The notes: generated by a model not told the origin, from the letters alone. Positions 5,300 through 63,737 are shown, counted from the stretch's first letter. The stretch is DNA of 64,000 nucleotides from Chiloscyllium plagiosum (GCF_004010195.1 NC_057718.1:5747110-5811109); one strand, 5' to 3'. Translations and numbers: made by a program.

Positions 5300-5396
5300 A
5301 ATAAAACAGCAACTGCTGGAGAAACCCAGTAGCTCTGGCAGCAGCTGTGGAGAGAAAGCAGAGTTAACATTTCAGGTCCAGTGACCCTTCTTCAGG
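5300..5396 (-). mobile_element. PLE-derived hammerhead-motif element (subfamily C) inside a CR1 fragment
   Basis: Minus strand CUGAAGA-A-GGGUC-ACUG-GACCU-GAAA-U-GUU-AAC at about 5363-5395. Confidence 0.65.
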
Positions 5397-6029
5397 ACCT
5401 ATCTGTTTCTGTCTTAAAGACTTTCAAGGACTCTGTCTCCACAGCCTTTCTCAGTAATGAGTTCCACAGGTTCACCACCCTCTGGCTGAAGGAATTCCTC
5501 CTCATCTCAGTTCTAAAGGATCATCCCTCGCTCTGAGGCTGTGCTGTCAGGCCCTAGTCTCTCCTACAAGTGGAATTATATTCATCACTTCCACTCTATT
5601 CATACCTTTCTGTATTCCATAAGTTTCAATCAGATCCCCTGTCATCTTACTAAAGTACAGACCCGGAATCCTCAACTGTTTCTCTACAATAGAGCTTTAA
5701 GATTGTGAAAGGAAGAGAGTAGATATGGAGGAAATGTATCCACTTGCTAATGAGACCAGAACTAGCACCCAGAAATGTCAGACTATCCACGATAAATCCA
5801 ATGGAGGAGAAGCCTGTTTAATTAGACAAAGTTTGCAATGTGTCTGAGCTGGGCTTAATGGTGGTAATTATTCTCTAAAACCAATGAAGCTGTGTGTCTG
5901 TGGGTTATGTTGATAACTGTGGGATGATGTTTTTGCAACTAGATGGCTGTTTCTAGTGGGATTCCGCGGGTCCCCTTGGCTCCCTGTGGCACATGTTAAA
6001 GATTTGTGGGGAGGAGTGAAACAACCAAA

Positions 6030-7185
6030 CAATTGTTTGAACAACATAACAATACAACGCAGAACAGTCCCTTCGGCCCTCGATGTTGCGCCGACCTGTG
6101 AACTAATCCAAGCCCATCCCCCTACACTATCCCATCATTATCCATTTGCTTATCCAAGGACTGTTTAAATGCCCCTAATGTGGCTGAGTTACATACATTG
6201 GCAGGAAGGGTAATCCACGCCCTTATCACTCTGGGTAATGAATCTGCCTTTGACATCTGTCTTAAATCTATCACTCTTCAGTTTGCAGCTATGCCCCCTC
6301 GTAGAAGCCATCGTCAACATCCTAGGAAAAAGACTATCACTGTCTACCCTACCTAATCCTCTGATCATCTTGTATGTCTCCATCAAATCCCCTCTTAGCC
6401 TTCTTTTCTCCAATAAGAACAGACCCAAGTCTCTCAGCCTTTCTTCATAAGACCTTCCCTCCAGACCAGGCAACGTCCTGGTAAATCTCCTCTGCACCTT
6501 TTCCAATGCTTCCACATCCTTCCTGTAATGGGATGATCAGAACTGTACGCAATACTCCAAGTGTGCCCGCACTGGTGTTTTGTATAGTTGCAGCACGGCA
6601 TCATGGCTGCAGAACTCAATCCCTCTACCAATAAAACCTAACACACCGTATGCCTTCTTAACAGCATTATCAACCTGGGTGGCAACTTTCAGGGATCTCT
6701 GTACATGGACTCCAAGATCCCTGTGCACATCCACACTACCAAGAATCTTTCCATTGACCCAATACTCTGCCTTCCTGTTATTCTTCCCAAAGTGCATCAC
6801 CTCACATTTATCTGCATGAACTCCATTTGTCACCTCTCAGCCCAATTCTGCAGTTTATCCAAGTCTCCCTGCAACCTGCAACATTCTTCCACATTTTAGT
6901 GTCATCTGTACACTTATTAATCCATCCACCTATACCTGCATCCAAGTCATTTATAAAAATGACAAACAGCAGTAGTCCCAAAACAGATCCTTGTGGCACA
7001 CCACTAGTAACCGGACTCCAGGCTGAATATTTTCCATCAACCACCACTTACAGAAAGACAGTTTCTAATCCAAACTGGTAAATCACCCTCAATCCCATGT
7101 GTCTGCATTTTCTCCAACAGCCTACATGTGGAACCTTATGAAAGGCTTTACTGAAGTCCATGTGCACCATGTCAACTGCCCTACA
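6030..7185 (-). mobile_element. CR1 LINE ORF2 RT and 3' end (3' part of an interrupted long copy)
   Basis: Frameshifted ORFs with MDFSKAFHKVPH, SGVPQGSVLG, DKCEVMHFG, LEKVQRRFTR. Confidence 0.92.
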
Positions 7186-8507
7186 AGTTTGGAACAAGTT
7201 GTTGGAGGGAGTCCTGAGGAAAAGGATGTACAATTATTTGGAAAGGCAAGGACTGCTTAGGGATAGTCAACATGGCTTTGTGTGTGGGAAATCATATCTC
7301 ACAAACTTGATTGAGATTTTTTTGAAGAAGTAACAAAGAGGATTAATGAGGGCAGAGCGGTGGATGTGATCTATATGGACTTCAGTAAGCGTTCGAAAGT
7401 TTCCCCATGGGCGACTGGTGAGCAGGGTTAGATCTCATGGAATACAGGGAGAACTTGCCATTTGGATACAGAACCGGCTCAAAGGTAGAAGACAGCGGGT
7501 GGTGGTGGTGGAGGGTTGTTTTTCAGACTGGAGGTCTGTGACCAATGGAATACCACATGGATCGGTGCTGGGTCCACTACTTTTCAACATTTATATAAAT
7601 GATTTAGATGTGAGCATAAGAAGTACAGTTAGTAAGTTTGCAGATGACACCAAAATTGGAGGTGTAGTGAACAGAGAGGAAGGTTACCTCAGATTACAAC
7701 GGGATCTTGATCAGATGGGCCAATGGGCTGAGAAGTGGCAGATGGAATTTAATTCAGATAAATGCGAGGTGCTGCATTTTGGGAAAGCAAATCTTAGCAG
7801 GACTTATACACTTAATGGTAAGGTCTGAGGGAGTGTTGCTGAACAAAGAGACCTTGGAGTGCAGGTTCATAGCTCCTTGAAAGTGGAATCCTGGGTAGAT
7901 AGGATGGTGAAGAAGGCATTTGGTATACTTTCCTTTATTGGTCAAAATATTGAGTACAGGAGTTGGGAGGTCATGTTGCGGCTGTACAGGACATTGGTTA
8001 GGCCACAGTTGGAATATTGCGTGCAAGTCTGGTCTCTTTCCTATTCGAAAGATGTTGTGAAACTTGAAAGGGTTCAGAAAAGATTTGTAAGGATGTTGCC
8101 AGGATTGGAGGATCTGAGCTACAGGGAGAAACTGAACAGGCTGGGGCTGTTTTCCCTGGAGTGTCAGAGACTGAGGGGTGACCTTATAGAGGTTTATAAA
8201 ATCATGAGGGGCAGGGATAGGATAAATAGATTGCAGAACTAGAGGGCATAGATTTAGGGTGAGAGGGGAAAGATATAAAAGAGGCCTAAGGGGCAACTTT
8301 TTCACACTGAGGGCGGTACGTGTATGGAATGAGTTGCCAGAGGGAGTGGTGAAGGCTAGTACAATTGCAACACTTAAAAGGCATCTGGATGGATATATGA
8401 CTTGGAAGGATAATGGCCAGGTGCTGGCAGGTTGGATGGGGATATCTGGTTGGCATGGACGAGTTGGACCGAAGGGTCTGTTTCCGTATTGTACATATCT
8501 TTGACTC
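7186..8507 (+). mobile_element. CR1 LINE (5'-truncated RT to 3' end) nested in opposite orientation
   Basis: ORFs 7418-7828 (SKFADDTKIGG) and 7859-8242 (LERVQKRF); CR1 tail. Confidence 0.92.
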
Positions 8508-10335
8508 TAATTGCAATCCTCCAGTCCTCTGGTACTAAATCTGTAGACCATGACAACTCAAAGATCAAGGACAAAGGCTCCAACATCTCCCTAACCTCCT
8601 AGGGAATTATCTGTTAAATCCCATCCAGCCCAAGGGACCTAATTACTTTCACATCTTCTGGAATTGATAACACCTCCTCCTTAATAACCACATTCCTTTC
8701 TAATCTAATAGTCAATATCCCAGTCTTCTCTACAATATTCTCCTTTTTCTCTGTGAAAACAGATGAGAAATATTTGTTTAGCAATTTTCCGATCTGCACA
8801 GGGTTCACACACAATTTTCCACTCCTGTCCTTGACTAACCCCTATTCCAACCCTCGTCATCCTTTTATTCCTCATACCTATACGGTTTCTTTAGGGTTAT
8901 CCTTTATTGTATTTGCTAAAGACTGCTTATGTTCTCTCCTTGTTCTTTTAAACTCTCTCTTTAAATCCTTCCTAGCTAATCTATAACTCTCCATCGCATC
9001 ATCTGAACCATCTCATCTCAATGTCACATAAGCCTCCCTCTTCTGCTTAACAAGACATACAATTCCTTTAATAAACCACGGTTCCCTTACCTTATCACTT
9101 CCTCCCAGTCTGAAAGGGACATATCTATCAAGGACATGCAATATCTGTTCCTTAAACCAGCTTCACATTTCGATTGTTCCCATCCCCTTCATTTTGCTAC
9201 CTCATTCTATGCCTGCTAAGTCTTGGCTAATTGCATTATAATTGCCCTTCCTTCATCGATAACTCTTGCCCTGTGGCATGTACCTATGCCTTTCCATCGC
9301 TAAACAAAATGTAACTGAATTATGGTCACTCTCTTCAAAGTGTTCACCTACAACTAAATCAAACACCTGGCCGAGTTCAAGACCAAGTACCAGATCCAGT
9401 GTGGCCTCCCCTCTTGTCGGCCCTTCGACCTACTGTGTCAGGAAACCCTCCTGCACACAATTGACAAAAACTGATCCATCCAACGTTCTGGAGTAAAAGC
9501 AGTTCCAGTCAATGTTGGGGAAGTTAAAGTCCCCCATAATTATCACTCTGTTCCTTTCACTCCTACCCAAAATTGTTTTGCCAATCCTCTCCTCCACATC
9601 CCTGGAATTCTGTGGAGGCCTATAAAAAAACTCCCAGCATGTGACCTCTCCTCTCCTGTTTCTGACCTCAGCCCATACCACATCAGTAGACGAGTCCTCG
9701 TCAAAAGTTCTTTCAGCCACCATTATACTGTCCTTGACTAACAAGGCCACACCTCCCCCTCTTTTTCCACCTTGCCTGTTCATAATGAAAGATCTAAACC
9801 CTGGAACCTGCAACATCCATTCCTCACCCTGCTCTATCCATGTCTCCGAAATGGCCACAACATTGAAGTCCCAGGTACCTATCCATGCTGCAAGCTCACC
9901 TACCTTATTCCAGATACCCCTGGCATTGAAGTAGAGGCACTTCAAACCAGCTTGCTGTCTGCCAACATAATCCTGTCCGTGTCCTCCCTACTCTCATCCT
10001 CCTGTGCACTGGAACTACACCTCAGTTTTCCATCCCCCGCTGAGCTAGTTTAAACCCACCCGAATAGCATTTCCAAATTTCCCACTCAGGATATTAGTAC
10101 CCCTCTGGTTCAAGTGAAAACCGTCCTGTTTATAGAGGTCCTACCTTCCCCAGAATGAGCCCCAATTATCCATGTACCTGAAACCCTCCCTCCTGCACCA
10201 TCCCTGCAGCCACGTGTTCAGCTGATATTTCTCCCTGTTCCTTGCCTCGCTATCACGTGGCATGGGTAACAAACCAGAGATAACAACTCTGTTTGTTCCA
10301 GCTCTCAGCTTCCACTCGAGCTCCCTGAAATCCTG
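8508..10335 (-). mobile_element. CR1 LINE 5' part: ORF2 APE endonuclease and linker, end of ORF1
   Basis: ORF 9430-9945 LYFNARG..ISETW..GGGVALLVK..YRPP..MGDFNFPNIDW; PEDWRIA at about 8510-8540. Confidence 0.92.
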
Positions 10336-11210
10336 CCTTACATCCCTATCCCTCGTTGGTTGGCAGTGAGGAGGGAAGGTGTAGACAGCAGGAAGATATC
10401 AATGGAAAGGTCAAGTGGGCAGGAAGATGTCAAAAGGAATTTAATCTAGAGAAGTCAATCATGCATTTGAAGAAGTCAATCAAGGCAAAGTGGTGCATAA
10501 TAAATGAAAAGGTATTGGATGGTGTTGAGGAAGCAAGGAACTTTGGAGTGAATGTTTGAATATTCCTGAAGGTAGCAGTTACAGGCCCATGAGATGGTTA
10601 GGAAGGCAAATGGAACTGTTTTGCTTTTAGATGCAGTTTAGAATATTAGAGCAGGGAGGTTGTGCTGGAGCTGTGTAAATCATCAGCCACAAATTGAATA
10701 TTGTATGTGGTTATTCAGAATAAAAAGGATAGAAATGCAGGATAGAGGGGACAGAATAGACAATGCTGTTGTCAGGACTGGAAAAATGCAGCTCATGTGG
10801 AAAGATTAAATATGTAGGATTTGCTGCCTCCTTGGATTTCAGGAGGCTCAGGAGATTGGATTGAAATGTACACATTATGAGGGGGCATGGAGATAGTGAA
10901 ATGAAAGGCCTCAGTGTGCAGGTCAGTGAGTGTGAGGAGCATTGAAATCAATATCAATTAACAGATGTTTAGAAGGGAGACTAGGAAAGATTTTTGCTCC
11001 AGAGGGTGGTTGGGGTCTGGAACTCCCTGTTGCAGGACCCCCTTACTGATTGCAAAGGTGTCTGGAGATCTGCACTCTATGTTCAATCTCCCTCCTGCAG
11101 GGGCTGCAGGTAAAATACTGGAGAGTCAGATTAAGCTGGGTGGCCTGTCCTTTGACCGGTGCAGTAACGATGGGCCAAGTGGCCTCTTTCAATGCTGTAA
11201 ATCCTCAATG
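10336..11210 (+). mobile_element. Old, decayed CR1 LINE 3' fragment
   Basis: Remnants of KWA..EFNLEK and CR1 3' UTR with many stops. Confidence 0.65.
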
Positions 11211-11707
11211 ATTGTATGTCTGGAGATATGTGTTGAACTAAGATGTATGGCATTGTGGAGGGAACTTCAGCCTGGAACAAAGATGTGCCGAGAATCTTGA
11301 GCACACAGTCTGGCCTGATTTTCCGGGTCAATGATGGCCCATTGACAATTGCAGTGTTGGGTGGGGGAGCTGCTATTTCTCTGATGCTATCTGTGGTGAT
11401 AAATTGCTGATATTCCCTTTGCCCCCATTTGCTGCCCTACAGTCAGTCGGTTTAGAATGTTGTCTGACGTAAAATATCCAAAGACTGCTCCCACTGCCCA
11501 ACTGACGCCTAGGATTGAAGTTGGGTCTCTTCGAACCACACGCTTAGAGGAGCTTAGGCAGGAAAGGGTCTCCTTGAGAGGCTGCTGGATTAGTTTGATT
11601 GAAACCCCATTTCTGTTTATCAGCAGAACAGACAGTTTTGGAAATGCTCAGTAGGTCTGGCTGCCTCTGCAGAGATGTCACATTTCAAGTTCCGCATGAC
11701 TTCAAGT

Positions 11708-11960
11708 CACAGTCTTATAACATGGAGAAAAGCCCCTTGGTCCAACTTGTCTGTGCAGACCAGATATCCTCAACTAATCTCGCTCCATTTATCAACATTG
11801 GGCTCATATTCCTCTAGACCCTTCATATTCATATACCGATTCAGGTGCCTTTTAATTGTTGTAATTGTACCAGCCTCCACCACTTTCTCAGGAGGCTAAA
11901 TCCCCACACGCACCACCCCCGTGTGAAAAAGTTACCGCTCAGGTCTTTTACAACTCCTTC
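11708..11960 (-). mobile_element. CR1 3' end fragment
   Basis: Matches recurring cagatatcc..ttgtaattgtaccagcctccaccact CR1 tail. Confidence 0.75.
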
Positions 11961-12051
11961 CTCCTGCTGAGCTCCAACAAATACTCTTGAGAACTCATTT
12001 TCTATTTGTCAAGATGTAGTCATCATGCTTCTCAATGTTCTTTCTCAACAG

Positions 12052-12142
12052 CTGTGTCAAAGTGAGCAAGACCTGGAAGAGGATTGTCTATGACGATAAA
12101 AGAGCAAGCCAGCTCTTGAGGAATGCTTTGCATTTACAAAGA
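12052..12142 (+). CDS. FBXO5: FBXO5 exon 3 (F-box C-terminal half), 91 bp
   Basis: tttctcaacag| ... AGA|gtaggt; phase fits exon 2; translates (N)CVKVSKTWKRIVYDDKRASQLLRNALHLQR, like Emi1 VSKVSTTWKKILEDDK; absent from the ORF track. Confidence 0.9.
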
Positions 12143-13374
12143 GTAGGTGATTGTTTCTATTCTTTCCTGTCTCCATAAGAGTTCTGATAAATACTTGTGT
12201 AGGGCAAATGATTGGGAATGGCTGATCTACAATTTGTGGCATTGATGAGTCTTTATACAAAAGAACTGGGAGCTGGACGAGGCCATTCAGCACCTTGAGC
12301 TTGTTCTGTCATTCAATAAAGATCATGTCAGCTCTGTTTTATCACCTTGGATCCCTCGATTACTCAAGGGAAGCAGCCTCTCAATATCTATCAACTCAGG
12401 ACCTCATTTAGATGTGACATTTAGTGAGGTCTCATGAATTGCCTCGAGCATGTGGCTTACCTTTACATGGAACGCTCATCCTCAACACAAGCATTTAAAA
12501 CCATGACTGTCACCAGCTTTTCACTGCACTACTGTTGGAGGTTTTGCTTAAACAGATGTGGGTAGGGCACTGAAAAGCTGCAGGTTAAGTGAGTACACAA
12601 CAAGATGGTTGAAGAAGTATGTTGTCAGTAGACTTGAGGTTTTTCACTTCAGTTGTAAGAGTAGAAGCAGTATTTTTCAAAAGGGTCCGAATCCTGTAAA
12701 TGTATTCAGTGAGGCTTGAATGCGCTCATAGAAGGAGCATAGAGAGTTAGCAGGCAGGTACAACAAGCAAGTAAGAAGGCAAATAGTATATTTGCCCTTT
12801 ATTGCAAGGAGACCGGAATACAAGAATAAAAAATATCTCATGACAATTCTATGGTGTTTTGGTGAGATCATATCTAGAATACTGTTTTCTCTATATTTAA
12901 GGAGGGATTGGATTACAGCTACAGTTAACTAAATTGCTCTCTGAATAGAGGTGGGTTCTCCTACAATAAGATGCTGTGCAAGCTGCACCTATTTTCTCTG
13001 GAGTTTCAAAATAAATGAATTGATCTGATTGAAATATTTGGGATTCTGAAGTGGTTTGATGCTGGGAGTCTGTCAGATGTATGGTGCTATTCCTTGTAAA
13101 GAGGTGTTGCAGGGACAGATGTTGATAACTATGCTACAGTTGCATGGAGTTTAGGATAAAATTCTGGGCTGCAGTCTTGTTGACGGGGTCCTTGCGATAG
13201 GATTTTTTAAAAGTGGTAGCTTCAGTTCATTTGGAAATCAGACACAAGAAATGGAGCTCATCAGGAAGATGGTGGGAAGTGGAGATTTGTTGGTGATTGT
13301 ATAATTTTGGGCATCTTGCTGTGGCGGACATTATTACTGTGTGAACCTGAACACGGTTGCTGGCTTAAAATCGT

Positions 13375-13461
13375 GTGTGCTGGAGAAACTCTGCAGGTCT
13401 GGCAGAGTTTGTGGGGAGAAAGCAGAGTTAACCTTTCAAGTCTGACGCCTCTTCATCAGAA
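13375..13461 (-). mobile_element. Decayed PLE-derived hammerhead-motif element (subfamily C)
   Basis: gctggagaaactc..gagttaacctttcaagtc..ctcttcatcag = minus-strand CUGAUGA...GAAA. Confidence 0.55.
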
Positions 13462-14076
13462 CACCAATGTTGCTGGGTTGTTTAACTATGAACAAAGAGT
13501 AACTGGGTAGTTAAGATGATCCCTACCCAGATGACTTGGTGTTTGTATTCCTGGTCCAGACAATTGAAGGAGAAGTGGGCCAAGTGTATACTTGGTTTGT
13601 ATTTGCTGGTTTAGAAGATTGAGGAATCATCTGATTGAGGTGTTCAAAATGTCAAGAGGATTTAAAAGGATAGATAGAAGGAAACAGATTATCCTGACAG
13701 AGGAATACAGGCCAAAGGGGCAGAAACTTAAAGTTAATTTAGGGGCCATTTAGAGGTGATCAGGAAGCAATTCCTCAAACAAACAGCAGGGGAAATCTGG
13801 AATTTTCTCTCTTAAATGGCTGGGAAGTCATTTGGAACTTTCAAGCTGAGAACGGTAAATTTTAGTTGGACAAAAGCAAATGGAGTGAGGTGAAATATCA
13901 GTCTAACTGAAAGGTAAACCAGTCTAGAGAGGCTGAACACCCTTCTCCAGTTCCCAATGTTCTCTGGTCCCACAGTTGTATTTCTGAATACATCCAATAT
14001 TTCTGCATCCTGTCTGTTGTAAATTATTCTCGAATTTTTTTTAAACTTGCGTTTTTTTCTTTCCACACTTTATCAG

Positions 14077-14250
14077 TTGTCTGGTGCTGACTCTCTGGGT
14101 GACACAGCTGTCCGCAGGAACGTGGTTTCCCGAGGGGTGCTGTCTTCCGTGCAGCGTGTGAGCATGAGTTCCCCTCAGAAATGCTTGACTCAGCCCTCCA
14201 GCCCAGTGAAACTAAATCGTGTTTCCCAAAGAAGCATTCGGCATCAACAG
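14077..14250 (+). CDS. FBXO5: FBXO5 exon 4 (D-box RGVLSSVQ), 174 bp
   Basis: ctttatcag| ... CAG|gtaact, phase 0/0; RxxLxSVQ D-box as in Emi1 RTPLASVQ. Confidence 0.88.
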
Positions 14251-15235
14251 GTAACTAACTTCTCTCCGCCCACATTGCAACCAATTCTTTCCTGACTTCA
14301 CTCTTTACCTGCTCGGCTTTAATTGTGAGGCTACACTTCTTTGTTAGAATCATTTCCCACCAAATTGCTCATTGTCTCCTCGAGAAGCTGGAGGAGAGTC
14401 CTGACTAAGGTGTGCAGAGTTCTGAGGGGAATAGAAAGAGAGAAACCATTCACCTCAGTAGAGGGATCAATAACCAGTTGTAAGGTAAGGAGCAGTAGGT
14501 TTAGAGGAGACTGGAGATAAAACAATTTTTACCTACAGGGTGGTGAATATCTGGAACACATTGCCGACAGGGGTGGTAGAGCTGTAGCGAGGAAGATATA
14601 TGTAAGAAATATTTAGACAATCACTTGAAACACCGCAGCATGGAAGTCAATGGGCCAAGTGCTGAAAATGGAATTAGAGTGGATAGATGCTTGATGACCG
14701 GTTGGACATGATGAAACAAAAGGGACTTTTATTTGTAAAAACTCTATGCTTCTACCATGTCAAATCTCTGATATTTTTGAAAAGGAATCAGTCCCACCAT
14801 GTACCTTGTCAAACCTCCAGGGGATGCAAGCCCTAATGTCATTATAATTTAACTGTTTGAGCTCCTGTATTAATCTGGCGTTCAGTGATACACTCATCTT
14901 TATTCCTCAGTGGGAATCTGATGTGGACTTTATACTAATTTCTCCTTCATGAGTGGAACTACCTCCTATTACAGAGAGGGAGCAGGCTTTATTCTTGATG
15001 CCAAAAGACTGAGAGAACCTGTACACAGGAGTCCAGTCAGTGCTAGAGCACGTTGAACAGTAATGCCGAGGAAGAATGTGGTTTTTGAGAAGTCAAACAT
15101 CCCCCAAGTGCCTAGTTGCCATTCTGTCTGTATCCCGTTTGTTTTTCAAACATTGTTGTAACAATTTCCCTCCGTGTTGGTGTCAGCACGTTTAAAACAC
15201 ACTGTGCGTTCTCTCTCTTCCCCTGCCCCACCCAG

Positions 15236-15484
15236 GTTGTGAAGACACTCAAGCAGGATGAGACCCTCAAGACTTGCCCCTTGTGTGCCTCACCGGCCAA
15301 ATTTACACCTTGCGAGGAGAGGGCGATCTGCAGCAACGAAAACTGCTCCTACGATTACTGCTCACTGTGTTTCGACACCTTTCATGGGTCAAAAGAATGT
15401 GCTCGCCGCCACTACAGAAACCATTCCAAATCACAGCCACAAGCAGGAAGCAAAAAGAGCAAACGGAACTTAAAACGATTGTGA
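15236..15484 (+). CDS. FBXO5: FBXO5 last coding exon: zinc-binding region (ZBR) and RL tail
   Basis: Polypyrimidine tract + cccag|; VVKTLKQDETLKTCPLCASPAK..C..C..DYCSLC..FHGSKEC..GSKKSKRNLKRL*. Confidence 0.93.
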   Translation, partial: VVKTLKQDETLKTCPLCASPAKFTPCEERAICSNENCSYDYCSLCFDTFHGSKECARRHYRNHSKSQPQAGSKKSKRNLKRL

Positions 15485-18529: not shown

Positions 18530-18735
18530 NNNNNNNNNNNNNNNNNNNNNNNNNNNNNNNNNNNNNNNNNNNNNNNNNNNNNNNNNNNNNNNNNNNNNNN
18601 NNNNNNNNNNNNNNNNNNNNNNNNNNNNNNNNNNNNNNNNNNNNNNNNNNNNNNNNNNNNNNNNNNNNNNNNNNNNNNNNNNNNNNNNNNNNNNNNNNNN
18701 NNNNNNNNNNNNNNNNNNNNNNNNNNNNNNNNNNN
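18530..18735. other. Assembly gap (N run)
   Basis: Ns in sequence. Confidence 1.
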
Positions 18736-19984: not shown

Positions 19985-20135
19985 AAAAAATGTGGATGCT
20001 GAAAATCAGAAACAAAATCATAAATTGCTGGAAAAACTCAGCAGGTCTGGCAGAGTCTGTGGAGAGGAATCAGAGTTAACATTTCGGGTCCAGTGACCCT
20101 TCTTCAGACCTGCTGAGTTTTTCCAGCAATTTCTG
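19985..20135 (-). mobile_element. Hairpin PLE-derived element with hammerhead motif (subfamily C)
   Basis: Inverted arms attgctggaaaaactcagcaggtctg / cagacctgctgagtttttccagcaat; minus strand CUGAAGA-A-GGGUC-ACUG-GACCC-GAAA at 20075-20107. Confidence 0.7.
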
Positions 20136-22086: not shown

Positions 22087-22625
22087 TGGGGAGATGGTGG
22101 CCTGGTGGTGTCATTGCTGGAGCTGTTAATTCAGAGACACAGATAATGTTCTGAGGATCTGGATTCAAATCCTACCATGATAGATGGTGGAATTTGAATT
22201 CAATAAACATCTGGAATTATGAGCCTAATGATGACCATGAAACTATAGTTTATTGTCAGGTAAAAACCCATCTGGCTCACTAATTACCTTATGGGAAGGA
22301 AACTGCCACCCTTACCTAGTCTGGCCAACATGTGACTCCAGACCCACAACAATATGGTTGACTCCTCACTGCCGTCTGGACAATGAAAGCTACCCCAGCC
22401 AATGATGACTTGGAGGTGCCAGTGTTGGACTGGGATGGTCAAAGTTAAAAATCACACAACACCAGGTTATAATCCAACAGGTTTATTTGGAAGCACTAGC
22501 TTTCATAGCGCTGCTCCTTCTTCAGGTTCTCCACAATCACCTAATGAAGGAGCAGCACTCCGAAAGCTAGTGCTTCCAAATAAACCAGCCAATGGTGCCC
22601 ACATCCTGTATACTTATTAAAAATA
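22087..22625 (+). mobile_element. tRNA-headed SINE (second family), interrupted by a hairpin element
   Basis: Same family as 60308-60665 and 61281-61655 (ggttcaaatcc B-box; tgtgactccagacccacagcaatgtggttgactct core). Confidence 0.75.
22405..22584. mobile_element. Hairpin PLE-derived element (subfamily B) with two inverted, degenerate hammerhead motifs; TSD ccagccaatg
   Basis: ggtttatttggaagcactagcttt / aaagctagtgcttccaaataaacc arms; ccagccaatg at 22395-22404 and 22585-22594. Confidence 0.75.
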
Positions 22626-23366: not shown

Positions 23367-23911
23367 TGAGCCTCAGAACCCACAGATGCTACCATACCAG
23401 CAGAGTCTCTCCAACAATTTCTGTTTTTGTTTCTGATTTACAGCAGCCGCAGTTCTTTTGGCTTTTAACATATCATTAGGACTTGACAGAAATGTGGATG
23501 TAACAGCCCACAAGCTGCATCTTCTAACAGCCACACTGTAGGTATTTAGAACAATGAAAGGATCTTACACACATTACTGAAGCTAAGCTCCCAGCATCAT
23601 AAGCCTTCACAAGCCATCAGCATTGAATAGTTCTTTGCGGAGATTAAACAAATGACTTATTTGTCTGACAGATGTTGTGCTTTGAAAAATATTTGCATGC
23701 TTCAGCAAAGCACTCAGATTTTATTGGCCAACCAGTCACCCAGCTTTTCTGCTCCTTCCCTCTTTGTCAGCTGGAACTCAGTCAGTCACATTTGCTTGTA
23801 AAGTCAGGCTCATTTGGGAATTAAAACACAACAGCGAATGCTGGAGATTGGAAACAAAACAGAAATTTCTGCAGAGACTCTGCTGATATGGTAGCATCTG
23901 TGAGAAGAAAG

Positions 23912-44681: not shown

Positions 44682-44874
44682 ATGATTTGGAGATGCCGGT
44701 GTTGGACTGGGGTGTACAAAGTTAAAAATCACACAACACCAGGTTATAGTCCAACAGGTTTAATTGGAAGCACACTAGCTTTCGGAGCTGATGAAGGAGC
44801 GTCGTTCCGAAAGCTAGTGTGCTTCCAATTAAACCTGTTGGACTATAACCTGGTGTTGTGTGATTTTTAACTTT
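44682..44874 (+). mobile_element. Perfect hairpin PLE-derived element (subfamily B) with a hammerhead core at the loop
   Basis: 69 bp perfect inverted repeat 44718-44786 / 44806-44874; CUGAUGA-A-GGAGC-GUC-GUUCC-GAAA-G-CUA at 44788-44816; TSD tttcttagaagct at 44669-44681 and 44872-44884. Confidence 0.8.
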
Positions 44875-44989: not shown

Positions 44990-45805
44990 ATGTTAGGGCC
45001 TTTGGTAATGTTGTAGAACAGAGATATGTGGGGGATCAGGTACATGATTCGTTGAAGTTTATATCACATATGGACAAGGTGGTTAAAAAAGCATTTAGCA
45101 CGCTTGTCTTCATTGCTCAGTCCTTTGAGTGTAGGAGTTAGGATTTCCCGTTGAGGTTGTAGAGGACATTGATAAATCGACATTTCGGGCATAAGCCCTT
45201 CTTCAGGCGCTTTTCCAGCAACACATTTTTCAGCTCTGATCTCCAACATCTGCAGTCTTCACTTTCTCCCAGGACATTGGTAAGGCCTCTTCTGGAATAC
45301 TGTATCCAGTTCTGGTCACCCAGTTATAGGAAGGATATTGTTAAGCTGGAGAGGGCTCGGAAGTGTTTGGCAGGAGTATGTAAGTATTGAGATATAAACA
45401 AAGGATGGATAGGCAGGGACTCTTTCACTGGAGCATAGGACGTTGAGATGTGACCTTATAGAATATTATAAAATAATGAAGGGTATAGAAAGAGTTAGTT
45501 GTAGTTGTCTTTTCACTAGGATGGGGTATGTCAAGACCATGGGGCACATTTTTAAGGTGAGAGGAGAGAGATTTAAAAAAAAACATAAGACGCAATTTTT
45601 TTACACAGAGGGTGGTTTGCATATGGAATGAACTTCCTGAAGAAGTGGTAGATGTGTGTACATTTACAATGTTTCAAAAACATTTGGATAAGTGCATGAA
45701 TAGGAAGGATTTGGAGGGATATAGGCCAGGAGCAGGCAGGTAGGACTAGTTTAGTTTGGGATTATGTTTGACATGGACTGGTTGGACAGAGGGATCTGTT
45801 TCTAT
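44990..45805 (+). mobile_element. CR1 LINE 3' fragment with nested insertions
   Basis: RTLVRPLLEYCIQFWSPSYRKDIVKLER. Confidence 0.85.
45172..45270 (-). mobile_element. 99 bp PLE-derived hammerhead insertion; TSD aggacattg; empty site at 46745
   Basis: Minus strand CUGAAGA-A-GGGC-UUAU-GCCC-GAAA-U-GUC; TSD at 45163-45171 and 45271-45279. Confidence 0.8.
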
Positions 45806-47584: not shown

Positions 47585-47765
47585 CCTAGGAGAAAGTGAG
47601 GACTGCAGATGCTGGAGATCAGAGTCAAAAAATGTGGAGCTGGAAAAACACAGCAGGTCAGGCAGCATCCGAGGAGCAGGAGAATTGACATTTCGGGCAT
47701 AAGCTCCGAAGCTTCTCGGTTGCTGCCTGACCGGCTGTGCTTTTCCAGCACCACACTTTTCGACT
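47585..47765. mobile_element. Hairpin PLE-derived element (subfamily A); TSD gtgataccta
   Basis: Inverted arms; TSD at 47575-47584 and 47766-47775. Confidence 0.72.
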
Positions 47766-47954
47766 GTGATACCTATCATCAGATCAACAGTGTGTGTGTG
47801 GGAAGAATATCTCTGATGGGCGAAGTAGGTCCATTTCCATTACATTCACCCACCAGAGGAAACCAATTCTCTGCAGCTATCCTACTGAAACCTTTTAACA
47901 GGTTGAACATTTTGATTAGATCATCCAAAACCATTTCTTACTCAAGAAGTGTGT

Positions 47955-49725: not shown

Positions 49726-51539
49726 GCTGGAAAAGCTGAAAACTCTCAATGGATCAGGCAACATCTGTGGAAAAGAACCAGAGCTTACGTTTCAGATCAA
49801 TGACCATTCATCAGGACTAGGAAAAATTGGAAATGTTTTTGGGAGAGTGAGGAAGAGAACAAAATAATAATTTGTGATACGGTGAAAGGCAAGAGAGATA
49901 AAGCACAACTGGTTTGTTAGTGCAGGGCAAATGGATGTGGTAGCGGATGTATCTTGAAGAGGTGTGAAGGGCAGAATGATGAATACCTGGTCTCCAAATG
50001 GAGAAACAAGAGAAAAATGGGACTAAGATCAAAACTTGTCAAGAAAAAGGAAATAAAATGGAGACAGAGATGAGCACACCCATGCTAGTCACACACTCTC
50101 TAGTTGTGCCAACATCCTTCAAGATCTGTCCTGACTTGGCATAGCTCTGCTTCCAGATGACTGAACTTCATCTCAACACCACACTGCTCATTCACCATGA
50201 CTTTTTCATTTAGTAGATAGAAAAGCATACTGGAGATCACAACTAGGATCTCGAGGGACACTTCTCTGTTGAGTAATGCAGTGGACAACTCCAATGATGC
50301 ATCTCTTAGAAGAGGTGCCAGAGAGTAATTAGGGCTCAGCTACTGATAATATCAATCAACTTACACTTGTGTTACCAAGGAAAGATATCTTGCAGTACTT
50401 ACCTTCAACCTGCATTAAATACACAATGTGACAGGATTTGTTGGTGAAGTCCCCTATTCAATTAGTGGGAAGGACGTTCTATCAACTCACTGATTGTATG
50501 AAAATTGCACATTTTCACATCCCAAGATGCCCAAAGGAGTGAGAGCCAAGACAAATGAATTTTGGATAGGTAAGTTTTTAAAGCAGTCACTTTCCTGGCT
50601 TTGACTGTGAAGTATATGCAAACATAAAGTGAGCATTTCAGAAAGTGCACCATGTAACATTTGGGGTGTACAGACTGGGTTTACTGTTTGCGAAGCAACA
50701 TCTTTTTCTTACCTCACACTATTACACCTCTTAGATATAGATTAGGCTTAATCTGAAGCTACCTAACTGACAGGGCAAGTTGAATACCAGCCAGAGAGGA
50801 CTTTGCTGATTTTGGTCAACAATAAGATATTGGGTGGTTTGCTGTAATGACTTTCTTTGAAATGGACAGGAACTCTAATACATACAAGAATCCCAGAATC
50901 CCCAAGAGTCGCTTCACTATTAGTCAATTAATTTCTGAAGTGTAATCACACTTGATATTTCGGCAAACAGAAGAGATTGGATCCAGCAAGATCCCATAAC
51001 CTGAAAATGAGAGAAATGACCAAATTATGATGGAGCCTCAGTAAGATGTTTCTTAAATTAAGCTGATACTTTCCTGACTTCAATAAACTCTGTAATTTGT
51101 TTTGTTTAGCAGCAGAATGAGACAGAGAATATTATAAGGTGGCAACGAGTGAAGAGACAGTGTGATGATGTCTCTGTAATTACCAAAAGGCTTTTGAGCA
51201 GGTTGCATAAATGTGGTAGACGTGTGGCTGAATTGGTGCCAAATATCGAGAAGATATCATGCTGCATTTAGCCTTGCAGTGAAAGTGAGTACTGAGCAGG
51301 TCAGTATGTTATGGTTTGCAATGAATGTGTAGATGACAACCCAGTTGGCACGCGATTGACAGAGAAAATGCTACATTAGGGAAGTAATAAAAACATTGGA
51401 AGCCCATTTCAGTCTGTAAAAAAATATAATTTTTTAAAATTAATACTGAGGATGTGGGCATCACTGGCTGAGCCAATGTTTTTGCCCATCCCTTGTTGCC
51501 CTTGAGAAGGTGATGTTTTCTTGAAACACTGCACACCAT

Positions 51540-57912: not shown

Positions 57913-58934
57913 TCATTGCAGACTCAGTTTTCACTCTGCAGTTAAAATTTCCCCTGACAAGGTACAGCAGTCCAGGAGGGAGTGTCGCATGGCCACAGGG
58001 ATCTGTGTTTGTCCTCTCTTGTGGCTCGAGAAGATCCCATGTATCACTCTGAAGAAGAACAGGGGGATCTCCACAACTAACCTCACTAAAGCAGATGGTC
58101 GGTTCAATGCCATTCTGCTTCTCATGGGACCACGCTCCGAAGCAAGCTTTTCTCTTGTATCAAGTACTAGCAAGTTTTACAAGAATAAGGAAAGTAGACA
58201 GAACACCTGGCGTCGACTCATTGGAAACGACAATGGCAAACGTAGTTCTGTCAACCCTGTAAGGTTTTCCTGACTAACATTTCGGAGCTAATGCCAAAGT
58301 TGGAACTGTCTCACAGAGGAGTCAACAACAGCCTAACATAGCATACTCACAGTATCATAGCGTAAAGGCAATGCTCCAGACACCAACTTCCCTGGGTGTA
58401 TCCTGTCTCACTAACAGGACAGACCCAGCAAAGATGGCAGAATAGTATTATACAGTCAGGAGAGAGTTGTCTGGGAGTTCTCAACATTGACTTTGGAACT
58501 TATGAAGTCATAGCATCAAGTCAATCATGGGCAAGGAAATTGAATGCTGACTACCACCCACCATTTCCAACTTTCTCAAGAGCAACTAAATGACAGGCAA
58601 TAAATGCTGGCCAGTTAGTGAAGCTCATGTACTGTGAATGAATATAGCAGTAATATCGCTGCTGCAATGTCCTACATAAAAAAGTTGCTGCACTTCAAAA
58701 AAAAGGTTGTTGGGATATCCCAAGGTTGTGAAACATGTTGTCTCTGATTGACTGAGCCACAAATCTTTCTGAGTGAGAATGAACCTCCGTTGAAAAGTTG
58801 ACACTGTCATCCTCTTGAAAACCAGGCCAAATATCAGATCAGTTACCTCATTTGGATTAGGAGTAAAGCATTTGCACTGGGATTCTGTCTATGCCTTTGT
58901 CAAAAGTATAAGAATGCTATTGACTTTTATCTTT

Positions 58935-59064
58935 CAGTTCTGAAGAAGAGTCTCACTGGACTTGAAACTTTAACTCTGTCTCTCTCACGCTACAGATGCT
59001 GCCAGACCTGCTGAGTTTCACCACCATTTTCCATGTTTATTTCAGATTTCCAGAAAAAGCAGTA
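58935..59064 (+). mobile_element. PLE-derived element (subfamily C) with hammerhead-like fold
   Basis: AGUU-CUGAAGA-A-GAGUC-UCACUG-GACUU-GAAA-C-UUU-AACU; ttttatcttt at 58925-58934 and 59065-59074. Confidence 0.65.
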
Positions 59065-60283: not shown

Positions 60284-60307
60284 TTTCTTCCTCCACCCTA
60301 ACACTTC

Positions 60308-61655: not shown

Positions 61656-62144
61656 TTAAAATAATGTGGTAGTTAGAAGTATCAGCATTCAGAGGATTTC
61701 GGTTATCATATAAAAATTGTGTGGTCATAAAAATAACCTTTATAGAAAAATAGGATGTACATAATCTAACTACATTTACCTATGTGCACAATGCGTTAAG
61801 GATGGTGGAAGTCTAGAATTCTTTTCCTCAAATGACAGTGGAAGCAGGATCTTTTAATTCTGAGATGGACAGATTTCTGTTAAGCAAAGATATTAAGGGA
61901 TAAGGGCCAAAAGCAGGTATATGGAGGTAGGCCACAGATCATCCACGATTTCATTGAATGGTGGTACAGGCTAGAGAGACAGAATGGCCTGTCCTTATCT
62001 TCCAATGTCATGTATTCTCTGCTGGAGACAGTTCTGGGACTCACTGACTGCTGGTGTTTCAGTCTGAGCTGTTGTTTTAGTCAGTGGTGGTTTACTATGC
62101 CTCCTACTCTTAGGGGCAGGAGAAGAAGGCAGGTCCCTATCCTA

Positions 62145-62507
62145 GTAAGGACTGCAGATGCTCGAAACCAGAGTTTAGATCAGAGTGGTGCTGGAAAAGC
62201 ACAGCAGGTCAGACAGCATCCGAGGAGCAGGAAAATCAATGTTTCAGGCAAAAGCCCTTCATCAGGAATAGAGGCAGGAAGCCTTCGGGGTGGAGAGATA
62301 AATGGTGGTGGTGGTGGTGGTGGTGGNNNNNNNNNNNNNNNNNNNNNNNNNNGGGATGGAGGTGATAGGTCAGAGGGGAGGGTGGAGAGGATAGGTGGGA
62401 AGGGAGATGGGTAGATAAGACTGTCATGAGGACAGTGCTGAGCTGGAAAGTTGGAACTGAGGCAAGGTGGGGGGGAGGGGAAATGAGGAAACTGGTGAAG
62501 TGCATTT
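62145..62507 (-). mobile_element. PLE 3' terminal fragment (end of ORF, 3' region, hammerhead motif); TSD cctatccta; contains N-gap
   Basis: Minus strand ..FTSFLIS followed by pyrimidine-rich region and AUUC-CUGAUGA-A-GGGC-UUUU-GCCU-GAAA; TSD at 62136-62144 and 62508-62516. Confidence 0.7.
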
Positions 62508-63329
62508 CCTATCCTACCCCAGCCAGAATGGGAATCAAAGCCTCACTGTTGGCATTATTCCAAACCATGCACTAGCTTCCCAGCCAACTGAGCTAACCGT
62601 CCCGGTATGTATCTATATAAGAATAAATGTATCAGCTTTTACTGGTTGTATATTTCCAGATTTTTCTTTTGAACTTCCCTGGTGAGATTTGAATTCACGC
62701 CTGAGCACATTGTGTGTCGATTCCCCTGAGCCTTCTGCCTCCTCCGAGGCATTGGAACACTAGGCTGCAGTCAGACAGAATTTCATTTGTTGGCTGGTGA
62801 GAGGAAATTTGCAATGAAGTGTGGTTTCTGCTGGACCAAATGCCCAAGCTGGAGTTAAACAGTGGCTTGCTGTGTTTAAATGAGTTACACATTGCTAAGG
62901 AAATTATTGGCTGGAAATGGCAAAAAGGAGTTTAGTATTAAATAATTGCAATAGTTCTGTCATCAGGCATCAGCACTCCAAAGGTCAGCTGTATACCTCA
63001 CTGTCACTGCTTCCTAATCCTGTCTCCTACCACTAGGAATGCAAGTTGGAGAAATATAAGACGTGCTACTGTCAAGAGATTAACCATTAGACTCCCAGTA
63101 TCACTCGGAAAATGCCTGCATTTCCTGGAATCGACTGTTGTTACTTTATAAGACCATGACAGCATAAGAAATAGATACAGGAGTAGGTTATTTGCACCCC
63201 TGAGACTGCTCGGCCATTCAATAGGATCATGGCTGATCTGATGTTCCTCACATCCAGTTTCTTGCCCTTTATCCTTAACCCTTGACCCTTTACTGTTCAA
63301 TAATCTATCTATACCAGCCTTAAACATAC

Positions 63330-63737
63330 ATGATTTGGAGATGCTGGTGTTAGACTGGGGTGTACAAAGTTAAAAATCACACAATACCAAGGTTATAGTC
63401 CAACAGGTTTATTTGGAAGCACTAGCTTTCAGAGCGCTGCTCCTTCATCAGGTGGTTGTGGAGGATAAGATCGTAAAACACAGAATACATAGCAAATGTT
63501 TACAGTGTGATGTAACTGAAATTATATATTGAAAAAGATCTGGATTGCTTGTTCAGTCTCTCATCTTTTAGAATTAACATGTTGGTTTCAGTTTACCACA
63601 GAGAGCTGTGAGGGCAGTGACCTTGTGTATATATAAGGTTAAAAAATCACACAACACCGGATTATAGTCCAACAGGCTTATTTCGAAGCACTAGCTTTTG
63701 GAGCTCTGCTTCTTCATCAGGTGGTTGTGGAATATAA
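63330..63737 (-). mobile_element. Two direct copies of subfamily-B PLE terminus with hammerhead motifs, inside a CR1 fragment
   Basis: Minus strand CAC-CUGAUGA-A-GGAGC-AGC-GCUCU-GAAA-G-CUA-GUG at 63420-63454; second degenerate copy at about 63637-63735. Confidence 0.7.

Follow-up and report, generated by a model that had tools for sequence, protein, structure and literature searches.

Predicted minimal hammerhead ribozymes in probable 3'-terminal modules of Penelope-like elements in a shark genome

Dimer cleavage of minimal hammerhead ribozymes has reportedly been described by Lunse, Weinberg, and Breaker. The minimal hammerheads (min-HHRs) of metazoan Penelope-like elements (PLEs) are of type I. 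Helix I is short and open, a base between A9 and G10.1 is left unpaired, G10.1 pairs with C11.1, and positions 15.2/16.2 are palindromic, but there is no helix III hairpin. These min-HHRs form many consensus families with compensatory changes, are associated with PLE terminal regions, and are mostly solo dispersed copies, with some opposite-strand pairs (PMC4209133). The motifs described here, from a 64,000-nucleotide stretch of Chiloscyllium plagiosum DNA (the window), are alike in all of these respects, and four PLE min-HHR features listed by Cervera and de la Pena (PMC4209133) match features found here. In sequence, they have all the features of minimal type I PLE hammerheads. PLE insertions are 5' truncated, often have an inverted 5'-truncated copy, and carry the hammerhead near the 3' end (PMC8557442). 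We found no shark case of PLE min-HHRs in the published literature.

Predicted hammerhead motifs in the window

A sequence-only reading of this DNA had listed nine sites with a minimal hammerhead motif (CUGANGA-N-helix II-GAAA-NN-UH), and the motif was found at all nine. These were in family A at 32075-32116(-), 26067-26108(+), 31097-31138(-), and 45171-45212(-); family B at 63415-63457(-) and 44782-44824(+); and family C at 20070-20113(-), 5358-5401(-), and 58934-58979(+). A plain scan of both strands of the 64-kb window for CTGANGA-N6-30-GAAA gave 23 matches, with 16 in the repeat families. The other seven (7214, 31972, 52080, 60714, 47782, 32561, and 32409) were unrelated to these families. 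A strict min-HHR descriptor (core boxes and a helix II of at least 4 bp with a closing Watson-Crick pair) matched seven times in the window, whereas 200 dinucleotide-preserving shuffles averaged 0.065 matches and never gave more than 1. U16.1-H17 was also present in six of the seven (shuffle mean, 0.01). A covariance model trained on 11 A, C, and D copies gave 23 matches at E<0.01, although 11 of these were its own training rows, and it matched family B copies weakly (E of 0.1 to 2). Rfam hammerhead models had no match in the window even at E<=10, which is expected because the motif has no helix III hairpin.

Decayed and tail-only copies were added by BLAST with family references. This brought the total to about 30 related loci, or 1 per 2.1 kb. 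The high abundance claimed earlier stands, with a larger count than the original estimate of about 20 elements and ~1 per 3 kb. Family copies at E<=1e-6 cover 3,036 of the 64,000 bases (4.7%). The loci are as follows (coordinates, strand, description).

5303-5398, -, family C, both core boxes kept (CTGAAGA..GAAA; helix II GGGTC/GACCT); FBXO5 intron 1, antisense; 62.8 bits
13378-13467, -, family C, core kept; FBXO5 intron 2, antisense; 53.6 bits
19995-20134, -, family C, core kept; short inverted partner arm 20105-20134 (+), making a long hairpin; 63.3 bits
22406-22586, -, family B head-to-head pair; main arm 22406-22527 (-), inverted arm 22526-22586 (+)
23380-23459, +, family C tail only, 5' truncated, without hammerhead
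23821-23909, -, family C tail only, 5' truncated
25601-25648, -, C-like hammerhead motif, diverged tail; 51 bits
25709-25984, +, weak PLE endonuclease-region ORF remnant, immediately 5' of the A copy at 26070; 31% identity to P0004 residues 674-767 (tblastn E 3e-5)
26047-26152, +, family A (CTGT loop) head-to-head pair, found by strict descriptor and covariance model; right arm 26070-26152 with motif fully intact, inverted left arm 26047-26080 truncated inside the CUGANGA box
27429-27565, +, family C, core box decayed; 30.7 bits
28532-28671, -, family C, core decayed (CTGAACA); 32.1 bits
31000-31137, -, family A (TTAT loop) solo unit of ~135 bp, starts at ATTC, CpGs partly decayed; 58.1 bits
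32021-32141, -, family A (CTGT loop) insertion, perfect motif 32075-32116; a 27-nt inverted piece similar to the A 3' end precedes the insertion; 14-nt flanking direct repeats AGGCTCAGAGATTA at 32142-32155 and 32007-32020; 59.3 bits
34740-34832, -, family C, decayed; 14.5 bits
37622-37770, +, family C unit of nearly full length (~150 bp), GAAA box decayed; 38.5 bits
38191-38254, -, family C tail only
39039-39165, +, family C, decayed; found by covariance model
39461-39637, -, family A (TTTT loop) head-to-head pair, long hairpin; a deletion removed the cleavage triplet
41594-41705, +, family C, CTGAAGA kept, GAAA decayed; 33.5 bits
42601-42797, unstranded, family A head-to-head pair; arms 42601-42717 (-) and 42718-42797 (+)
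43326-43527, unstranded, family A perfect palindrome centered on the helix II loop; both arms without CUGANGA box
44683-44874, unstranded, family B head-to-head pair; + arm motif intact at 44788
45175-45277, unstranded, family A, rearranged; 33-nt hammerhead piece (-) adjoins an inverted A tail piece (+)
47586-47772, unstranded, family A head-to-head pair, core box lost
49776-49822, -, single diverged motif "D," CTGATGA-A-TGGTC..GATCT-GAAA-CGTA; 48.9 bits
56542-56756, unstranded, family C head-to-head pair, decayed
58935-59052, +, family C, CAGTT 5' end, core kept; 56.8 bits
62144-62270, -, family A (TTTT loop); upstream flank runs into C-rich PLE 3' UTR-like sequence
63331-63593, -, family B, 263 bp; part of PLE 3' UTR, hammerhead 63415-63457, and ~100-nt tail past the cut site
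63632-63764, -, family B, GAAA decayed to AAAA

The motifs have the type I form, with a helix I of 3 to 4 bp, a helix II of 4 to 6 bp, and a single base left unpaired after A9. In place of a helix III hairpin there is only a palindrome, ACGU or AGCU. In families A, B, C, and E, the core boxes and U16.1-H17 are all kept, A9 and G10.1 are separated by an extra base, G10.1 pairs with C11.1, and positions 15.2/16.2 are palindromic. Helix II differs from family to family yet is complementary in each (GGGC/GCCC, GGAGC/GCUCC, GGGUC/GACCC, and GUUACC/GGUGAC), and the helix I sequence also varies. Pairing was tested in a model-fitted alignment of 47 rows, with 500 shuffles and slid partners as controls. 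In this alignment, 83.0% of cells paired, compared with 73.1% in the shuffles (none of the 500 was as high) and 16 to 48% with slid partners, and double changes were seen in eight of nine pairs. This agrees with the covarying stems claimed earlier. Helix II was paired in 95.5% of cells. Helix I was weak (70.6%), and in the most common A subfamily it includes a U-U mismatch. For the 42-nt motif at 32110, the minimum-free-energy fold is exactly helix I plus helix II (-7.7 kcal/mol). Two details given for family C held only in part. Its helix I, AGUU, is present at 58940 but reads AGGU at 20107 and GGUC at 5395. No family C copy in the window keeps the ACGU palindrome, which has decayed to AUGU or ACUU, whereas the CpG form (GAAACGTTAAC) occurs elsewhere in the genome, in 51 copies.

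Modules downstream of PLE open reading frames

The copies are noncoding and extremely abundant, in support of the sequence-only reading. The genome has 80,723 perfectly intact family A motifs and 14,834 perfectly intact family B motifs, and exact intact-motif matches for the three families together number 95,608. Two copies are antisense in FBXO5 introns, also as claimed (5303-5398 in intron 1 and 13378-13467 in intron 2). FBXO5 is on the + strand, and its product is 98% identical to the Hemiscyllium protein, which places the host among the orectolobiform sharks.

A genome search with PF01541 (GIY-YIG) gave 14,403 first-look candidates. At 7 of 14 distinct GIY-YIG places, there was a hammerhead 0 to 500 nt downstream on the same strand, and at an eighth (L042) the hammerhead box was mutated. 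Alignments of PLE loci run from the ORF through a C-rich 3' UTR to the family A module, after which similarity ends, and the 3' UTR is 150 to 640 nt long. A 429-aa ORF adjoining an A module matches RVT_1 plus GIY-YIG proteins of 750 to 1000 aa (E 3e-75). Family B has a common end point and starts that vary up to inside the GIY-YIG ORF; 21 of 28 copies extend upstream, by variable lengths. The A:TTTT subfamily likewise behaves as variably 5'-truncated PLE ends. The modules therefore lie after GIY-YIG/RT-type ORFs, and the derivation from PLEs proposed earlier holds, because elsewhere in the genome the motifs are contiguous with these ORFs and 3' UTRs. Very probably, the "mini-elements" are 3'-terminal modules of several PLE lineages, each with a hammerhead and then ~90 to 110 nt to a fixed element 3' end. 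The sequence is N across the RT parts of the PLE loci, and the two candidate loci are degenerate.

The copies have a common 3' end and variable 5' ends, with target-site duplications of variable length (8 to 16 bp), and an inverted partial copy often stands at the 5' end. Of 23 young A copies, 10 were flanked by direct repeats of 9 nt or more, compared with 1.8% of mismatched controls. Family A forms a discrete unit of ~130 bp that starts exactly at helix I. Nothing is conserved upstream of ATTC in 38 A:TTAT copies, and 36 of 69 unselected A copies reach this point. Insertion 5' ends did not pile up at the predicted cut site (5 of 69 were near it); nothing in the DNA record points to cutting by the ribozyme. 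Of 50 family A arms, 22 had an inverted partner, as did 7 of 33 family B arms, and there are 12,443 palindromic A loci genome-wide. In nearly all palindromic A loci listed, the helix II loops of the two arms agree, and junction types recur. The arms of head-to-head pairs are unequal, and their junctions vary in position and carry a few extra bases. About two-thirds of copies have no inverted arm. Variable 5' truncation, target-site duplications, and head-to-head inverted copies are published PLE signatures, so they fit a PLE origin.

How the copies might arise

We suggest that PLE reverse transcriptase makes the copies. It would prime ~100 nt 3' of the hammerhead, at a fixed internal site, and copy toward the RNA 5' end; PLE RT is described as starting internally (PMC11167929). 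For the ~130-bp family A unit, the template RNA itself would begin 4 to 7 nt upstream of the CUGANGA box, and the cDNA would run off there. The start at ATTC would most likely be a transcription start in the terminal repeat, where PLE transcripts are described as starting (PMC6765202, PMC2377424). Because the RT parts read N and the two candidate loci are degenerate, we infer this account of the sharp 5' end. Head-to-head pairs may come about when short self-complementary stretches (helix II or UUC/GAA) let the free cDNA end fold back and serve as its own primer. Acting as a dimer or helped by protein, the hammerhead would remove upstream RNA from PLE transcripts, and the RNAs actually copied into DNA would be uncleaved. 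Against this mechanism, PAc (the Anolis carolinensis Poseidon PLE), the sole PLE studied in vitro, has RT start sites upstream of its hammerhead, which is opposite to the arrangement here (PMC11167929). Also, Craig et al. describe hammerhead-less PLEs as proliferating well, so the motif may be dispensable (PMC8557442).

The ~130-bp family A unit could be either a self-propagating nonautonomous lineage or a run-off product of PLE transcripts. It is possible, but doubtful, that this unit (and the ~150-bp family C unit) is a true SINE-like lineage, self-transcribed (an internal promoter might overlap the hammerhead block) and served by PLE RT in trans. Such a lineage would suit a discrete unit with a sharp ATTC 5' end and flanking 8- to 16-bp target-site duplications, the huge numbers with several loop subfamilies, and a 3' end common to unit and PLE, as for SINEs and their partner. 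The 5' end, YYATTCC, also resembles the initiator consensus. Furthermore, in Drosophila Penelope a LINE-like internal promoter lies just past the start site (PMC2377424). However, the same module, with the same loops (TTAT, TCAT), ends ORF-bearing PLE copies, so the short units could all be dead-on-arrival products of PLE transcripts. The sequence-only reading had seen SINE/retrozyme-like PLE derivatives, but a separate SINE-like class was not borne out: family B and A:TTTT behave as plain 5'-truncated PLE ends. The retrozyme part was not supported. Non-LTR retrozymes would be tandem head-to-tail copies that give oligomeric RNA, which is cut to units, circularized, and reverse transcribed. The type I hammerhead, with a palindromic helix III needing a partner, is what they have, a one-turn copy of a circle would likewise give a sharp unit length, and PLE terminal repeats are given as the origin of animal retrozymes in a 2026 preprint, which also reports retrozymes in the one chondrichthyan that it includes (10.64898/2026.07.22.740005). 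Even so, this origin is very improbable, because an A hammerhead start follows within 30 nt of only 40 of 56,217 family A 3' ends, by a rough estimate about the level from random neighboring insertions. For the bulk of the copies, it is largely refuted. There is no tandem pair in the window, and the copies run between the RT start site and ATTC rather than being permuted around the cut site.

We think it unlikely that the conserved block is not a functional ribozyme but a PLE protein binding site, RT-related signal, or promoter element with an inherited hammerhead likeness. The very low in vitro activity reported for metazoan min-HHRs (PMC4209133) would fit such a role, as would the ends that do not pile up at the predicted cut site here, the thriving of hammerhead-less PLEs (PMC8557442), and the findings on PAc, in which hammerhead mutants insert normally and no reads end at the cut site (PMC11167929). 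However, four families whose helices are wholly changed yet paired retain each of the 11 invariant core positions and obey the NUH rule, which a noncatalytic role would not obviously demand. PAc RNA also cleaves with protein, and C3/G8 mutants abolish this cleavage (PMC11167929). A reading of the long inverted repeats as microRNA precursors or as foldback/MITE DNA transposons, with the hammerhead-like loop incidental, is hardly credible. Rfam microRNA models do match five hairpin loci below gathering scores (for example, MIR860 at 44730-44863, 68.4 bits versus 89, and MIR1861 at 43374-43497 and 47639-47749), but these are plant families, and the subthreshold matches reflect only long perfect stems. 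The many copies without an inverted arm, the unequal arms and variable junctions, flanking duplications of variable length, and continuity with PLE ORFs all argue against it.

Comparison with known systems

As 3'-terminal PLE modules, the copies can be compared with several described elements. Helix II is 4 to 6 bp here and 7 to 8 bp in the min-HHRs of Schistosoma (PMC4209133). Like PAc (PMC11167929), they belong with GIY-YIG and RT and have a hammerhead near a fixed insertion 3' end. An RT start at a defined internal site, a template RNA that would be uncleaved, and no ends at the cut site are further likenesses. However, PAc RT start sites are upstream of the hammerhead and its ORF begins inside helix II (PMC11167929), whereas here insertions end ~100 nt past the cut site, and the ORF and 3' UTR come before the module. 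Animal non-LTR retrozymes are also short and noncoding, with a type I hammerhead needing a partner (PMC7229834, 10.64898/2026.07.22.740005) and a proposed origin in PLE terminal repeats (10.64898/2026.07.22.740005), but they are defined by head-to-tail tandems that give circular RNA.

The schistosome Sm-alpha/Sj-alpha elements are similarly short, dispersed, very abundant noncoding retroposons with a hammerhead near the 5' end. Theirs is a canonical hammerhead with tertiary contacts, preceded by a promoter (PMC6765202), whereas the motif here is minimal, without helix III, and identical to that of the resident PLEs. The HDV-like ribozymes of R2/L1Tc are comparable as self-cleaving motifs (predicted here) at the 5' edge of a retroelement transcript, and they are thought to free element RNA from an upstream cotranscript (PMC6765202). 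That class cuts at its own 5' edge and stays on the element. The hammerhead cuts on its 3' side, so cleaved RNA would lose the motif; the genomic copies here retain it. Hammerhead-bearing PLE ends are thus a known kind of thing, and this case is notable mainly for its very high copy number, with 95,608 exact intact motifs compared with descriptor hits of ~4,000 in coelacanth and ~9,000 in Xenopus (PMC4209133).

Hammerhead motifs in the window

The sequence-only reading had cited nine sites with a minimal hammerhead motif, spread over three repeat families (A, B, and C), and the stated motif was found at all nine. A plain scan for CTGANGA-N6-30-GAAA matched 23 places in the window, 16 in the repeat families and 7 unrelated. 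The strict descriptor matched 7, compared with 0.065 expected from 200 dinucleotide shuffles. A covariance model trained on 11 copies returned 23 window matches at E<0.01 (its own 11 training rows among them), and about 30 loci were reached once BLAST with family references was added. Family loci occupy 4.7% of the window (BLAST, E<=1e-6). Exact family A matches number 2, versus ~1.5 predicted from the genome average. Therefore, the window is typical of the genome.

An Rfam scan of the window returned zero hammerhead families, both with the gathering cutoff and with E<=10. The Rfam hammerhead models (Hammerhead_1 and the other curated models) are built with a helix III hairpin, and the window motifs do not match them. 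Sub-threshold Rfam matches to plant microRNA and plastid-UTR families at five loci were rejected as merely long inverted repeats. A core-box match at 47782 (-) was set aside as chance, its sequence being the reverse complement of the A tail. There was also a sub-threshold mir-460 match at 30719-30771 (-), with 30.7 bits against a gathering threshold of 52 (E 0.003), where there is no locus of a Penelope-like element (PLE).

Sixteen window copies carry the core C3-U4-G5-A6-N7-G8-A9, G12-A13-A14, A15.1, U16.1, and H17 (not G). The predicted cleavage triplets are GUC in A, CUA in B, GUU in C, and GUC in E, a further family that was found by a core-box regular expression without any helix requirement. 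In all 73 recurring-family matches whose helix II reaches 4 bp or more, a one-base offset between A9 and G10.1 was required; the unpaired nucleotide is an A in copies of A, B, and C and a U in copies of E. The first helix II pair of 47 aligned rows was GC in 25, GU in 16, AU in 3, other in 1, and a gap in 2, in keeping with a G10.1-C11.1 pair, and the 16 GU rows reflect a C-to-T change in the CpG that precedes GAAA. The helix III hairpin is absent. Positions 15.2 and 16.2 are complementary, which makes A15.1-N-N-U16.1 a palindrome through which two copies could pair. It reads ACGU in families A and E and in those C copies that are intact, and AGCU in family B; in many of the old copies it has degraded to ACAU or AUGU. 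The minimum free energy fold of the 42-nt motif of the copy at 32110 consists of exactly helices I and II, and a double-hammerhead dimer would be a kissing arrangement rather than a nested one.

The proposal that these helices change sequence and keep pairing held up. In the 47-row alignment, which was fitted to the model and is biased towards structure, and whose rows are related copies, the covariation score of helices I and II was 0.327, compared with 0.203 after shuffling (reached by 0/500) and 0.03-0.12 with slid partners. Changes on both sides of a pair filled 47 cells, versus 19.4 in shuffles, and were seen at 8/9 pairs. Paired cells made up 83.0% of the total, compared with 73.1% in column shuffles (83.0% was reached by 0/500) and 16-48% when the partners were slid; by helix, 95.5% of cells were paired in helix II and 70.6% in helix I. 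Because of the structural bias and the relatedness of the rows, the strongest argument is the comparison between families. A, B, C, and E all retain every invariant core position and the NUH rule, and their helices I and II differ yet pair.

Repeat families, their neighbors, and Penelope-like coding sequence

The family A unit is ~130-135 bp long. It runs through ATTC, CTGA(A/T)GA, A, GGGC-loop-GCCC, GAAA, CGTC, and GA(T/A)T to a ~90-nt tail that terminates ...CACTTTCTCC. Family C is homologous to A over its whole length, starts with CAGTT, and has a 5-bp helix II (GGGTC/GACCC). Family B has a tail unrelated to A and C, and its sequence runs far upstream of the motif. One diverged copy at 49814 was called D, and family E (helix II GTTACC/GGTGAC, unpaired T) was met only in loci outside the window. 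Exact intact-motif matches across the 3.56-Gb genome numbered 80,723 for A, 14,834 for B, and 51 for C; a reversed control pattern gave 0 in every genome count. C copies show 83-88% identity to a window copy, and just 51 across the genome retain both motif CpGs. Identity is 92-95% among B copies and up to 96-98% among A copies. Judged by their sequences, families A, B, and C differ in age. Extrapolation would put the genome-wide loci on the order of a million.

Families A and C share the block GATGCTGCC[T/A]GACCTGCTG[T/A]G.TTTTCCAGCA, ~55-90 nt after the CUGANGA box. Its conservation between A and C equals that of the ribozyme core, and a small hairpin is possible (TGCTG/CAGCA). This block may be a recognition or start region for reverse transcriptase (RT). 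A tRNA-like B box in GAAACGTCGATTC was rejected, by eye only, as lying in the wrong register.

The first-look output of a GIY-YIG profile search of the genome was 14,403 candidates. At 7/14 distinct GIY-YIG places, the endonuclease motif is followed 0-500 nt downstream by a hammerhead of matching strand, and an eighth has a mutated box. Alignment gave the order ORF end, C-rich 3' UTR, family A module, and then the end of similarity. At L045 (L-numbers are PLE/hammerhead loci elsewhere in the genome), a 429-aa ORF matches 750-1000-aa proteins with RVT_1 (PF00078) and GIY-YIG (PF01541) domains (E 3e-75). tblastn with one such protein found PLE coding sequence upstream of A modules at L005, L006, L033, L036, L037, L040, and L045, and a weak match in the window at 25709-25984, adjoining the copy at 26070. 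Because the sequence of the RT portions of these PLE loci reads as N, the RT evidence for them comes only from homologues and tblastn; GIY-YIG was read in the module-adjacent ORFs themselves. The 28 family B copies have one common 3' end and starts scattered over >1 kb, up to inside the GIY-YIG ORF; 7/28 begin 8-14 nt upstream of the motif. A pseudo-LTR would place the hammerhead repeat on both sides of the ORF; here it was seen 3' of the ORF only. Putative 5' copies at L043 and L044 are either degenerate or adjacent to unread sequence, and L045 is likewise degenerate or partly unread. At one family E locus (L039:1920-1923), the TGA stop of the GIY-YIG ORF is hammerhead U4-G5-A6, so the ORF end and the ribozyme motif overlap.

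The motif marks and the link to PLE ORFs bear out the core of the original interpretation. On sequence evidence, the window elements are PLE-derived minimal hammerhead motifs, with cleavage a prediction.

Some copies had been placed antisense in FBXO5 introns, and this was confirmed for the C copies at 5303-5398 and 13378-13467. The relevant features are as follows.

4134-15481, forward strand: FBXO5 (tblastn/ORF match)
7370-7825 (forward), 9433-9987 (reverse), and 24673-24978 (forward): RVT_1 and AP-endonuclease (Exo_endo_phos) ORF fragments, LINE remnants

Matches to F-box only protein 5 of Hemiscyllium ocellatum were found for the ORF at 15233-15481 and for three other exons, with an identity of 98% in the best local alignment with that ORF as query and of 79-98% by exon (tblastn). 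This places the host among orectolobiform sharks or their near relatives. The LINE remnants at 7370-7825 and 9433-9987 sit within FBXO5 intron 1. Directly upstream of the C copy at 5395, ~5400-5510 (-) holds what we take to be the conserved end of the 3' coding region in CR1-type LINEs. Family C was considered as a LINE tail and rejected; because this flank is found in no other C copy, the CR1-type sequence is a chance neighbor.

Other features of the window were also recorded. Inverted ~40-nt copies (…CTGATGAATTGTTA…) at 31960-32000 (+) and 32392-32420 (-), ~440 bp apart, flank the 32110 insertion. It seems that this PLE module was inserted into a different element, one that has terminal inverted repeats. 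An identical 48-nt string at ~35599 and ~38612 (+), 3 kb apart, suggests a local duplication. Runs of N (assembly gaps) lie at 18530-18735 and at 62327-62352, the latter just upstream of the A copy at 62265.

Insertion ends, head-to-head copies, and the sharp 5' end

Flanking direct repeats of at least 9 nt were found at 10/23 young A copies, compared with 1.8% of mismatched controls. Several of the 10 duplications adjoin ATTC, the family A start at helix I, directly. The A units in this set are 127-130 bp long. In the window, the 32110 insertion has a 14-nt duplication. There is zero conservation upstream of ATTC in the A subfamily with loop TTAT, and the upstream sequence of the TTTT subfamily and of B continues into the PLE 3' UTR. 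Of 69 A copies taken without selection, 36 extend to the motif's 5' edge, 15 stop within it, and 18 stop downstream of it; just 5/69 end near the predicted cut site. Therefore, the templates turned into DNA were uncleaved RNAs, not cut at the ribozyme site, and many of them would have started a few nucleotides upstream of helix I.

Nine of the ~30 window loci are inverted pairs. In a sample of genome copies, 22/50 A arms and 7/33 B arms had an inverted partner, and genome-wide there are 12,443 palindromic A loci whose two arms both keep their CpGs intact. By our own reading, both arms share the loop variant in nearly all palindromic loci among the matches listed, so the arms were made in one event. 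Also by our reading, the junctions recur in the helix II loop and in self-complementary stretches around the core box (UUC/GAA or CUUCUUC/GAAGAAG); head-to-head junctions sometimes carry a few extra bases. We infer that these palindromes would be snap-back products. An inverted, 5'-truncated copy beside the 5' end is given as a hallmark of PLE insertion in the available text of PMC8557442.

Two arrangements were noted separately. At L044:6096-7744, four head-to-head family A pairs with a spacing of ~480-520 bp look like local tandem amplification of a palindromic unit. In the window, inverted pieces similar to the A 3' end abut a hammerhead on its 5' side at 32115-32141 (-) and 45207-45277 (+), and these may correspond to the PLE "tail" extension of the literature.

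A SINE- or retrozyme-like class had been suggested for these elements. The retrozyme label, which implies tandem hammerhead units giving circular RNA, was wrong: an A hammerhead starts within 30 nt of just 40/56,217 exact family A 3' ends in the genome, and no tandem head-to-tail pairs were found in the window. By rough estimate, 40 is about the number of junctions that random neighboring insertions would give. The sharp 5' end is better explained, in our view, by PLE replication itself. The PLE transcript would start at ATTC in the terminal repeat, PLE RT would start at a defined internal site ~130 nt downstream of ATTC, and the run-off cDNA would then be exactly unit length. We prefer this explanation because a transcript start in the terminal repeat and an internal RT start are both published for PLEs. 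As far as the accessible text of these reports goes, the start of a downstream element lies within the repeat of its upstream partner (PMC6765202), Drosophila Penelope has an internal promoter beside its start site (PMC2377424), and PLE RT has a defined internal start site (PMC11167929).

The sharp 5' end might instead come from a self-transcribed SINE-like lineage. A SINE would carry an internal promoter from which its own copies are transcribed; of the other SINE features, the elements do have a discrete 127-130-bp noncoding unit, target-site duplications, and a 3' end in common with PLEs. In the A unit, this end is identical to the one found in PLE copies with an ORF, and the SINE label is not proven. 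One form of this idea, which we consider rather unlikely, is that the ~130-bp unit is a self-propagating "hammerhead SINE" that uses internal initiation by PLE RT, its hammerhead block doubling as an initiator or internal promoter that defines the RNA 5' end. If that were true, no ribozyme-motif family described in a vertebrate would be larger than this one, with copies on the order of 10^5-10^6, and the by-products of its snap-back would give rise to >10^4 long, perfect hairpins in introns, possibly feeding small-RNA pathways. The uncleaved templates and their starts near helix I tie the motif to the transcript 5' end rather than to unit-length processing.

Relation to known elements

Minimal hammerheads in PLEs, dispersed solo copies, and the dimer model are already published (available text of PMC4209133 and PMC6765202). 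For the whale shark, another orectolobiform, the accessible part of one preprint reports PLE expansion in introns (bioRxiv 10.1101/443036). Separately, a 2026 preprint includes one chondrichthyan sampled for retrozymes (10.64898/2026.07.22.740005). Our literature searches found no description of these motifs in sharks. PLE termini, which ordinary Rfam scans do not flag, make up much of the repeat load in the introns of this shark. What the hammerhead does in PLEs that carry an endonuclease is treated as an open question in the text available from PMC8557442 and PMC11167929, and the shark genome gives unusual statistical power on it. That power comes from ~95,600 exact intact-motif matches in three families of different age, from sharply bounded insertions with target-site duplications, and from the 12,443 snap-back palindromes.

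The motifs here share four marks with the minimal hammerheads of PLEs (PMC4209133): an unpaired base following A9, a G10.1-C11.1 pair, palindromic positions 15.2/16.2, and a set of families with compensatory change. Strong 5' truncation and inverted copies, which the accessible text of PMC8557442 describes for PLE insertions, were both found, as was the common 3' end of such insertions. With the Poseidon PLE of Anolis carolinensis (PAc), hammerhead mutants insert normally in vitro and zero reads end at the cut site, according to the available text of PMC11167929. This agrees with the uncleaved templates of the shark insertions. The scale differs. Coelacanth and Xenopus have ~4,000-9,000 descriptor matches (PMC4209133), and the exact matches in the shark exceed these by an order of magnitude.
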